IMG/VR virus record: IMGVR_UViG_2734482780_000006
Length of the DNA: 5,868 nucleotides
From: a virus
Lineage: Duplodnaviria > Heunggongvirae > Uroviricota > Caudoviricetes
Strand: one strand, 5' to 3'
Part shown: positions 1,712-3,709 of the stretch, in pieces
How positions within the stretch are numbered: position 1 is the stretch's first letter
Layout: every line of letters starts with the position of its first letter
Made by a program: the position numbers and the translations under genes
The notes under the pieces: generated by a model
Told to the model about the DNA's origin: nothing
The model's database searches: none
Seen by the model: the letters and a program-made list of their open reading frames with translations, nothing else

Positions 1712-3709
1712 ATGTCAGAAACGAATGCGGCAGCGTCACAACAATCAGCCGCCACTTCTGCATCCACCGCGACCACGAAAGCGTCAGAAGCTGCCACCTC
1801 AGCCAGGGATGCGTCGGCTTCAAAAGAGGCGGCAAAATCATCAGAAACGAACGCCGCCTTGAGCGCCAGTGGTGCAGCGTCCTCGGCAACGGCGGCAGGC
1901 AATTCCGCGAAGGCGGCAAAAACGTCCGAGACGAACGCAAGGTCTTCTGAAACGGCAGCGGCACAGAGCGCTTCTGCAGCGGAAGGCTCAGAAACTGCCG
2001 CTGCATCATCGTCCCGTGAGGCGTCAGTTAAAGCGGAGGAGGCCTCAGCCAGTGCCACCGCCGCCGGAAAATCGGCAGAAAGCGCTGCATCGTCCGCTTC
2101 AGCAGCCACAACGAAGGCTGGTGAAGCCGCTGAACAGGCCAGTGCAGCAGAGAGATCTGCTTCCGCAGCGAAGACATCAGAGACGAACGCGAAAGCGTCG
2201 GAAGCCAGCGCAGAATCCTCAAAAACGGCAGCCGTATCGTCCGCCAGTTCGGCGGCGTCATCAGCATCATCGGCGTCAGCTTCAAAAGATGAGGCGGCAA
2301 GGCTGGCGTCAGAGGCGCAGGGCAGTGCCACGACGGCATCCGCGAAGGCGACAGAGGCAGCTGGCAGTGCGACAGCGGCAGTGCAGAGCAAAAGTTCTGC
2401 TGAGTCTGCAGCAACACGCGCAGAAAATGCGGCAAAACGGGCAGAGGAGATTGCATCTGCTGTGGGCCTGGAAGATGCCAGTACGACCACAAAGGGAGTT
2501 GTCAAGCTCAGTAACCGTACTGACAGCACTTCGCAGACAGAGGCCGCCACATCCCTTGCAGTCAGTAACGTCATGAATGAGGTGAAGACAAAAGCGTCAC
2601 TGGATAGTCCGGTCTTCACCGGTACCCCTATGACACCGACACCACCGGACGATGCTTCAGGTCTGGAAACAGTGAATGCGGCGTTTGTCCGCAAATTGCT
2701 TGCTGCTCTTGTGGGTTCATCTCCTGAAACCCTGGACACGCTGAACGAACTGGCGGAGGCGCTGGGTAATGACCCGGCGTTTTCCGTAACGATAATGAAG
2801 ATGCTGGCCGGAAAACAGCCTTTAAATCCCGTTCTGACTGCGTTAGGCAGTCTTCCATCCGGTGAAGATGGGTTTCCCAGTTTTAGCGGTAACGGGCAGT
2901 GTTCTCTGGCTCCTGTTTCTGAAAAAGGGAAACAGCTGTTGTCACAATCCACAGCCGAAGAGATGTGTGACGTTCTGGGTATCAATGGAAATAGTGGAAA
3001 CTCAGCAGCAGGCGGAAATTATGGGCTTCAGTCAGGCATTTATGACAGAACGCAGGGGCGGGCCGCTGTTGCAGGAAGTCTGGGATTCGGGCATATCTTC
3101 ACAAAAGGTGACGTTCTCAGCTTTTCGTCGAAGGAAGTGCTTCTTGACTGGATCTCAAATGCCACACCGGGGCGGTATACGGTCAGCGCTGACTGCGAAA
3201 TTATACCGGAAGTACAGTTTACAGGTGTGATTGATTTATTTTTCGCTGATGAGATGCGGAATAACCTTACTGTCCCGCTGATGCTGAAGATGGCTGTTTT
3301 TTACGGGATGAACGGTGAACTGTATCGGGCAACATACGATGCCATACATGGCCCTTCACTGAGTGAATGGGTGAAAATAAATATTGACCTGTATGATATT
3401 GCCAAAATCCTGAGCATGACCACAAACGATAATTATGGTGATCCGTATGCTGGAAGCATAACACTGGCAGCCTTTAATAGCCGTGGCAGCACTAAAACAG
3501 CTAGCGTCGTACGAGGGCAATATTACCCGGGCTCCGTCCTTACTCCCGTGGTATTCAGTGTTCCGGAGGGGGCATTATCGTCGCCGAAGATTGGGCTTTC
3601 TGGTACAGAGAAGCACACATTGCCGGGTGTTTACCGTGCATTATCCGGAACCCCGGATTACACCGGAGAAGGTGAGTTTATTATTGCTGCTTTTATAAGG
3701 ACGATGTGA
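1712..3709 (+). CDS. stf: Side tail fiber protein (lambda Stf-like), 5'-truncated, with a lambda-like Ala/Ser-rich shaft and a divergent distal domain; expression uncertain
   Basis: The 665-codon ORF runs from ATG 1712 to TGA 3707-3709. The stretch from ~1526 to ~2500 closely matches the central part of lambda Stf as I recall it (DSARAASTSAGQAA...AAKxSETNAAASQQSAATSAS...SETNARSSETAA...). The conserved DTLNELAEALGNDP...LAGKQP...LTAL motif lies at ~2735-2850. The last ~280 codons do not resemble the lambda Gly/His-rich C-terminus. Confidence 0.8.
   Translation: MSETNAAASQQSAATSASTATTKASEAATSARDASASKEAAKSSETNAALSASGAASSATAAGNSAKAAKTSETNARSSETAAAQSASAAEGSETAAASSSREASVKAEEASASATAAGKSAESAASSASAATTKAGEAAEQASAAERSASAAKTSETNAKASEASAESSKTAAVSSASSAASSASSASASKDEAARLASEAQGSATTASAKATEAAGSATAAVQSKSSAESAATRAENAAKRAEEIASAVGLEDASTTTKGVVKLSNRTDSTSQTEAATSLAVSNVMNEVKTKASLDSPVFTGTPMTPTPPDDASGLETVNAAFVRKLLAALVGSSPETLDTLNELAEALGNDPAFSVTIMKMLAGKQPLNPVLTALGSLPSGEDGFPSFSGNGQCSLAPVSEKGKQLLSQSTAEEMCDVLGINGNSGNSAAGGNYGLQSGIYDRTQGRAAVAGSLGFGHIFTKGDVLSFSSKEVLLDWISNATPGRYTVSADCEIIPEVQFTGVIDLFFADEMRNNLTVPLMLKMAVFYGMNGELYRATYDAIHGPSLSEWVKINIDLYDIAKILSMTTNDNYGDPYAGSITLAAFNSRGSTKTASVVRGQYYPGSVLTPVVFSVPEGALSSPKIGLSGTEKHTLPGVYRALSGTPDYTGEGEFIIAAFIRTM

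Follow-up and report, generated by a model that had tools for sequence, protein, structure and literature searches.

The window analysed here, the whole 5,868-nt stretch of the Caudoviricetes record IMGVR_UViG_2734482780_000006, contains part of a lambdoid tail-fibre gene, stf, followed by a gene for a DUF4376 protein. It very probably holds the distal half of a mosaic stf that carries a foreign tip and chaperone module and survives as a remnant. A module of ~1.7 kb (~2550/2633 to 4303), comprising the neck, the two-domain tip D1-D2 and the DUF4376 chaperone gene, would have replaced the lambda-type receptor-binding domain together with the first ~50 codons of tfa. The module and its flanks are laid out as follows:

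1523-2632, plus strand: stf remnant, a proximal coiled-coil shaft rich in Ala and Ser, with homology to lambda Stf residues ~146-400.
2633-2995, plus strand: neck, made up of the hinge and the distal coiled coil; it forms the left-hand part of the cassette and carries the SPETLDTLNELAEALGNDP motif (core 2700-2820).
3020-3406, plus strand: tip domain D1, tip residues ~9-137, alpha/beta (from a map of 89 relatives, an alignment and an AlphaFold2 (AF2) model).
3407-3709, plus strand: tip domain D2, tip residues ~138-237 and the stop codon, beta-rich and terminal.
3709-4275, plus strand: DUF4376 tail-fibre chaperone gene, its start overlapping the stf stop (TGATG), with an alternative GTG start at 3706.
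4276-4303, plus strand: short non-coding cassette tail and right-hand module boundary, DNA similarity ending at 4303.
4306-4457, plus strand: scar of the displaced lambda-type tfa (from Tfa residue ~50), with an in-frame stop and a frameshift.

Exchange of the tip as a cassette, which an earlier note on this DNA had proposed, is directly supported by the tfa scar, by the presence of the block on a P2 H-type fibre and by the co-occurrence of tip and chaperone. Beginning 31 nt past the chaperone stop, 4306-4443 aligns with lambda Tfa residues 50-103 (tblastn, 54% identity). The same scar extends to Tfa residue 191 in ARS-C101 (82% identity), and the Prokaryotic Genome Annotation Pipeline (PGAP) calls a tail fiber assembly pseudogene at the scar in strains ZYB62 and C41. 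The scar indicates that a lambda-type stf-tfa pair was overwritten from inside stf to about codon 50 of tfa. DNA similarity to phiP27 (L006) and, in an independent comparison, to the IMG/VR locus L011 ends in both cases at 4303; the exchanged unit includes the neck and runs to this position.

A search for the same tip on an unrelated fibre, which the note had put forward, succeeded in E. coli MB06234, where 2633-4220, covering the neck, both tip domains and the greater part of the chaperone, recurs with 88.2% nt identity and no gaps. The MB06234 fibre is intact (681 aa) and lies in a myovirus-type baseplate cluster. Its N-terminal anchor is of the P2 H type (PF12571), in contrast to the lambda Stf-type anchor (PF08400) of the ZYB62 allele. 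Between the window and MB06234 copies, the tip has a dS of 0.40 and a ratio of nonsynonymous to synonymous substitution rates (dN/dS) of 0.15, which indicates that the tip domain is under purifying selection. PGAP breaks up the intact 681-aa open reading frame (ORF) of MB06234 (L030, 2169-4214) into a pair of pseudogenes and names one ‘shikimate transporter’, which is probably a mis-annotation.

Upstream of the module the protein follows lambda Stf, in agreement with the note, which had described a lambda-like shaft up to ~2500. Identity is 77% over lambda residues 146-350 (205 residues, lambda orf-401 alignment) and 54% further on, to residue ~395 (alignment of 186 residues); at the DNA level it is 87% over 1524-2004 and 75% over 2310-2511. 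The conserved junction motif, previously described as present but divergent, was recovered within 2591-2995, a segment whose alignment with the lambda Stf hinge and distal coiled coil is gap-free (41% identity, 135 residues, E 8e-30) and which includes the SPETLDTLNELA / SPETLDTLNELAEALGNDP motif. A neck motif of the lambda type, SPxxLxTLNELAxALGNDP, is present. Homology to lambda stops at nt 2995, corresponding to lambda ...YLGAGENS at residue ~529, with nothing beyond residue 491 of the 728-aa frame; this end adjoins residue 525, where the distal coiled coil ends in the Ur-lambda structure (PMC12617516). The note had further held that the final ~280 residues are unlike lambda. This stands for the last 237 residues (2996-3706), which gave only chance-level fragments against the lambda C-terminus, and fails for the stretch before 2996, since GNGQCSL...VLGINGNS is still inside the significant lambda alignment. 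A lambda-type His/Gly/Ser-rich receptor-binding domain was not found in the stf frame, and a collinear match to lambda Stf over its whole length, C-terminus included, was looked for and not found.

The similarity to lambda falls gradually along the gene (77%, 54%, 41%, none), with no single step, as would be expected had there been no exchange, with the tip derived from the lambda receptor-binding domain by divergence in place, beyond recognition, and the next gene derived from tfa in the same way. This reading is most improbable. Descent of the DUF4376 gene from the local tfa is excluded, because a separate lambda-type tfa remnant lies 3' of it, and its product falls into another Pfam family and does not resemble lambda Tfa. 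The 88% identical block on a P2 H-type fibre likewise speaks against divergence in situ, as does the protein P0065, in which an internal D1 is combined with a lambda-type His/Gly-rich end, so that the two tips coexist as distinct modules.

With replacement by a module preferred, the likeness to the (Ur-)lambda Stf/Tfa system lies in the proximal coiled coil, the hinge and distal coiled coil, and the order of fibre gene then helper gene; the intact ZYB62 allele also shares the PF08400 anchor. By contrast, the lambda tip is His/Gly/Ser-rich and binds OmpC, while the 237-aa tip of the window is unrelated to it; the lambda helper is a Caudo_TAP-type Tfa, while the helper here is a DUF4376 protein; and the window copy lacks residues 1-145.

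DNA matches to the shaft in thousands of E. coli prophages stop at 2496-2550. The ~120-bp motif core (2700-2820) recurs at the DNA level in 1548 of the 5426 complete E. coli genomes searched (the set behind all genome counts given here), within tail-fibre genes of several types, and also matches P2, Fels-2, and Klebsiella and Yersinia phages. At the protein level the neck motif matches the tail collar fibre gp4 (PDB 9d93, E 7.8e-8), the sole PDB sequence match of the fibre. The DNA breakpoints are not only at the SPETLDTLNELA motif but flank it (~2512-2633), and it is plausible that homologous exchange to the left and right of the motif used the shared motif core and the prophage breakpoints as substrates.

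This kind of mosaicism is ordinary and well known. For P2 (H/G), Mu (S/U), P1 and lambda, tail-fibre genes of this mosaic make-up were reportedly described by Haggard-Ljungquist and colleagues in 1992 and by Sandmeier in 1994, both cited in PMC7882524. As in those genes, blocks of tip and chaperone are traded between unrelated phages at short conserved islands, whereas the tip and chaperone families differ in the window, and breakpoints also occur upstream of the classical motif (~2512-2633). The locus itself is a textbook mosaic fibre gene left in a deleted prophage at the Rac site, and only the uncharacterised tip family, its modular stacking and the strongly conserved chaperone are mildly novel.

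The tip matches phrog_2636 (tail fibre protein; E 1.8e-43), its residues 11-236/237 aligning to profile positions 329-567/568. No Pfam model matches the tip, even at E<=1, and NCBIfam returned nothing for shaft, tip or chaperone. On these matches the tip is placed in an uncharacterised two-domain tail-fibre family, PHROG 2636, which is without a Pfam model or a solved structure. D1 (~130 aa) precedes D2 (~100 aa). In complete relatives D2 lies at the C-terminus or a few residues from it, and its conserved end reads ...LF(I/V/M)R(I/T)(A/M). The family is small: scanning all 1.84 billion representatives with HMMER gave only 87 clusters, and a word-indexed protein search with the tip gave only 3 matches, all near-identical and from E. 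coli. Tips of 26-33% identity were found by tblastn in Rac-SA53, phiP27, SerU-LTIIb, Av-05 (Vequintavirinae) and phages 18-1-2 and 19-1-2, along with a partial match in the jumbo phage Goslar. The family stands C-terminal to at least 6 unrelated kinds of N-terminus, among them some like lambda Stf and some like P2 H; its members are found on lambdoid fibres, on P2 H-type tail-collar fibres, in Vequintavirinae phages and in one jumbo phage.

The candidates H4-H6 (45% coverage), considered as cases of the same shaft and chaperone with a different tip, were rejected when blastn showed the same tip and an internal deletion of 2043-2335, which falls in the repeat region. In the Actinobacillus phage vB_Apl-pPE4 (PP818812.1), an E. 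coli-like stf neck is found with a tip of this family paired with a DUF4376 gene (75% nt identity to the window over parts), reflecting either an unusual host range or a wrong host assignment.

The AF2 model of the tip is confident (pLDDT, a per-residue confidence score, of 87, with a 32-sequence alignment). Foldseek comparison of the model with the PDB gave no match at E<=1e-3, while its best matches in BFVD are tail fibres, and the model resembles the distal domains of receptor-binding proteins. The phi812/K receptor-binding proteins (PDB 9euf, 5m9f), R2 pyocin, Mu S and T4 gp34 have 7-18% identity to the tip, and its likeness to such solved fibre tips is a resemblance, not family membership. 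The predicted fold resembles phage receptor-binding domains only weakly, and the structure comparison supports a role as fibre tip for the model, with no specific fold family. The terminal position of D1-D2, its greater variability than that of the chaperone and its fold like that of receptor-binding proteins lend indirect support to receptor binding by D1-D2; the tip may specify a receptor different from that of lambda Stf.

The gene downstream of stf encodes the DUF4376 chaperone, its start at 3709 being taken from the PGAP annotation of ZYB62. The product matches PF14301 over residues 72-176 (62 bits, cut-off 25; E 8.4e-17) and phrog_1141 (E 1.7e-79), is 76% identical to phiP27 L57 and 42% to Av-05 gp077, and gave nothing in a PDB sequence search. 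With it as a probe, 21 IMG/VR loci with chaperone relatives were collected; together with three reference phages they make 24 loci, 20 of them assessable. In 19 of these 20, the chaperone start coincides with the end of an ORF whose last part is D1-D2. The expectation that the tip comes with its own chaperone is thus corroborated, in the form of a DUF4376 gene unlike lambda tfa with the tip family directly upstream. The same arrangement, a fibre ending in D1-D2 and then a DUF4376 protein of ~189 aa, is seen in phiP27 (L56/L57), Rac-SA53 (tail3/tail4) and Av-05 (gp076/gp077), and Rac-SA53 also occupies the same chromosomal site beside uspF. Their tips, however, are only 27-31% identical to that of the window, and some of the fibres have extra tandem neck-D1 modules.

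The pairing holds at the level of the family and is not specific to tip or allele: the chaperones are 62-83% identical to that of the window, while the tips that accompany them are either at least 98.7% or only 27-35% identical, with none between. The tip is the variable partner, as expected of a specificity determinant. Experiments showed that a DUF4376 gene that follows the fibre gene is needed for a functional fibre in Alteromonas phage V22 (PMC7289586, PMC10579305), as is the downstream DUF4376 gene of the Campylobacter CJIE1 H-fibre (PMC7882524). By analogy with these, the window protein may act as a helper in folding or trimerisation. The gene pairs of V22 (gp26/gp27), A5 (gp8/gp9) and CJIE1 are alike in having a helper with a C-terminal DUF4376 directly 3' of the fibre gene; they differ in belonging to other host groups and in having fibres for which no sequence similarity to the window tip was shown, and the A5 fibre works without its chaperone.

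Alternatively, the DUF4376 protein could itself be the adhesin, staying at the fibre end in the manner of the T2-type gp38 or of an Alteromonas chaperone ‘cap’, with D1-D2 as its docking platform. The label ‘tail fiber protein’ of phrog_1141 in PHROGs would fit such a role; moreover, the DUF4376 chaperones of V22 and A5 stay on the mature fibre, and TfaMu remains bound and may contact lipopolysaccharide. A specificity determinant should vary more, however, than chaperones of 62-83% identity do beside tips of 27-35%: phiP27 L57 and the window chaperone share 76% identity, their tips only 27%. The resemblance of the tip model to distal domains of receptor-binding proteins also tells against this alternative, which is unlikely.

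Within the family D1 also occurs internally, in tandem with neck modules and in up to 3 copies. Tandem neck-D1-neck-D1-D2 stacks are found in the proteins P0005, P0007, P0008, P0013 and P0018 and at loci L005 and L016. In P0064, P0065 and P0071 an internal D1 precedes a neck and then a tip of another kind altogether, which in P0065 is the genuine lambda-type His/Gly-rich one. The tandem and internal arrangements suggest repeated unequal recombination at the neck motif. A tentative extension, which is possible though on balance doubtful, is that D1-D2 forms a distinct, structurally uncharacterised receptor-binding family served by one near-generic DUF4376 chaperone that reads only a conserved Gly/Pro/aromatic framework. 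Divergent tips (27-35%) could then be swapped freely without co-evolution of the helper, and stacked neck-D1 units (up to 3 D1) could give in-line multi-receptor fibres. Tip-chaperone cassettes set the host range of phages and are swapped when lambda-derived delivery particles are retargeted; if the chaperone is generic for the family, its tips would be ready-made interchangeable parts for engineering.

The fibre gene in the window is a truncated, non-functional remnant in a heavily deleted prophage. The ATG at 1712, from which a 665-aa ORF can be read, corresponds to an internal position of lambda Stf (K to M), and the stf frame is open from 1523, where it aligns from lambda Stf residue 146. 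The 665-aa ORF is therefore an incomplete Stf, whose missing 5' part was overlooked in the earlier note. The frame begins at a junction with the terminase gene gpA:

34-1522, plus strand: 5' part of a lambda-type terminase large subunit gene (gpA), recognised by Pfam and truncated at about codon 497.
1522-1523, no strand assigned: deletion junction gpA'::'stf, with 2 bp of microhomology (AA).

The MLI105 terminase is 100% identical to the window up to 1523, and similarity to stf (C41, L002) sets in at 1522. The deletion has taken the 3' part of gpA, every head and tail gene, lom, and stf up to codon ~145. In Ur-lambda the fibre is held to the tail by a collar domain made up of Stf residues 1-91 (PMC12617516). 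Pfam gave no match at all in the 665-aa ORF, whose frame starts at lambda residue ~146; the corresponding anchor, PF08400, is missing there and is carried by the intact 870-aa ZYB62 allele (E 1e-72). With the anchor domain and the head and tail genes deleted, the gene in the window cannot make a fibre.

Independent prophage deletions repeatedly end inside stf. ZYB62 (L001, 6034-8673) lacks window positions 1214-1517 and has an 879-aa coding sequence annotated as ‘terminase gpA endonuclease subunit’, which points to a different deletion or fusion in the same type of prophage. In MLI105, gpA is followed directly by a lom fragment and stf. The database protein P0004 has a gpJ N-terminus fused to the distal part of stf, with a 100% identical tip, and P0082 is a deletion fusion in which an N-terminal sequence, resembling the start of gpE, the major capsid protein of lambda, is joined to a fragment that contains D1.

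Expression of the truncated ORF and its chaperone, co-opted by the host or a resident prophage, for instance as a fibre part acting in trans, is quite improbable. The stf frame runs uninterrupted for 728 codons, the internal ATG at 1712 yields the 665-aa ORF, and the chaperone gene is likewise intact; six other genomes carry tip DNA 100% identical to that of the window. Nevertheless, a product that lacks the PF08400 collar, which fixes Stf to gpV/gpM, cannot mount on the tail, and the ORF sits behind a truncated terminase gene. The exact tip allele is rare, being found in 8 of the 5426 complete E. coli genomes, mostly animal-derived, most of which carry the tip as a pseudogene, unannotated, broken or frameshifted; its intactness in the window is best explained by a recent deletion.

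If the fibre gene is a remnant of a mosaic stf, as preferred here, its intact form would be represented by the 870-aa ZYB62 allele. In such a phage the fibre would trimerise from its C-terminus, helped by the DUF4376 protein, would attach to the tail through the PF08400 collar domain, and would bind through D1-D2 a cell-surface receptor other than the OmpC of lambda Stf. In the window an illegitimate deletion has joined gpA codon ~497 to stf codon ~146. The remnant could persist as a silent reservoir of a host-range cassette, which a superinfecting or neighbouring phage could take up by recombination at the conserved flanks.

Several observations weigh against parts of this picture. The left boundary of the block varies with the partner, lying at 2496-2550 for most prophages, at 2633 for MB06234 and at ~2826 for Rac-SA53, so that the block was probably assembled by several events rather than one. 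The AF2 model is a monomer and shows neither a trimer nor an interface with the chaperone. The exact gpA::stf junction occurs in none of the complete E. coli genomes, making an assembly artefact at 1522/1523 possible; comparable gpA-proximal deletions are present in ZYB62 and MLI105.

By megablast against complete E. coli genomes, the region is the right end of a lambdoid prophage beside uspF, ompN and nifJ, the closest strains being ZYB62, C41 and A2; we take this neighbourhood to be the Rac attachment region. Across the window, the terminase fragment (34-1536) is followed by the fibre-like ORF (1712-3709), a 189-aa ORF (3706-4275), an AT-rich stretch and the start of a gene at the right edge. 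The gpA frame continues for 4 more codons past the junction, to a stop at 1534-1536. The fragment matches GpA_ATPase (E 1.3e-50) and GpA_nuclease (E 4.2e-51), the latter spanning only profile positions 2-178 of 294; it is context, outside the exchanged cassette. A promoter and terminator scan of 3600-5200 gave signals no better than those of shuffled sequence.

A 463-aa antisense ORF (1594-2985, minus strand) spans the Ala/Ser-rich shaft. Lambda has an annotated antisense orf206b at a similar place, and long antisense ORFs over this repeat region were judged to be compositional artefacts. The right-hand side of the window (4458-5868) consists of an AT-rich island (~4500-5100, 27-30% GC), which cuts off the tfa scar at ~4457, and the start of an adhesin gene. 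This gene begins at 5072, is cut by the window end and encodes a YadA-like trimeric autotransporter adhesin (Pfam YadA_head, E 5.6e-19, and YadA_stalk); the region looks like a moron at the prophage end.

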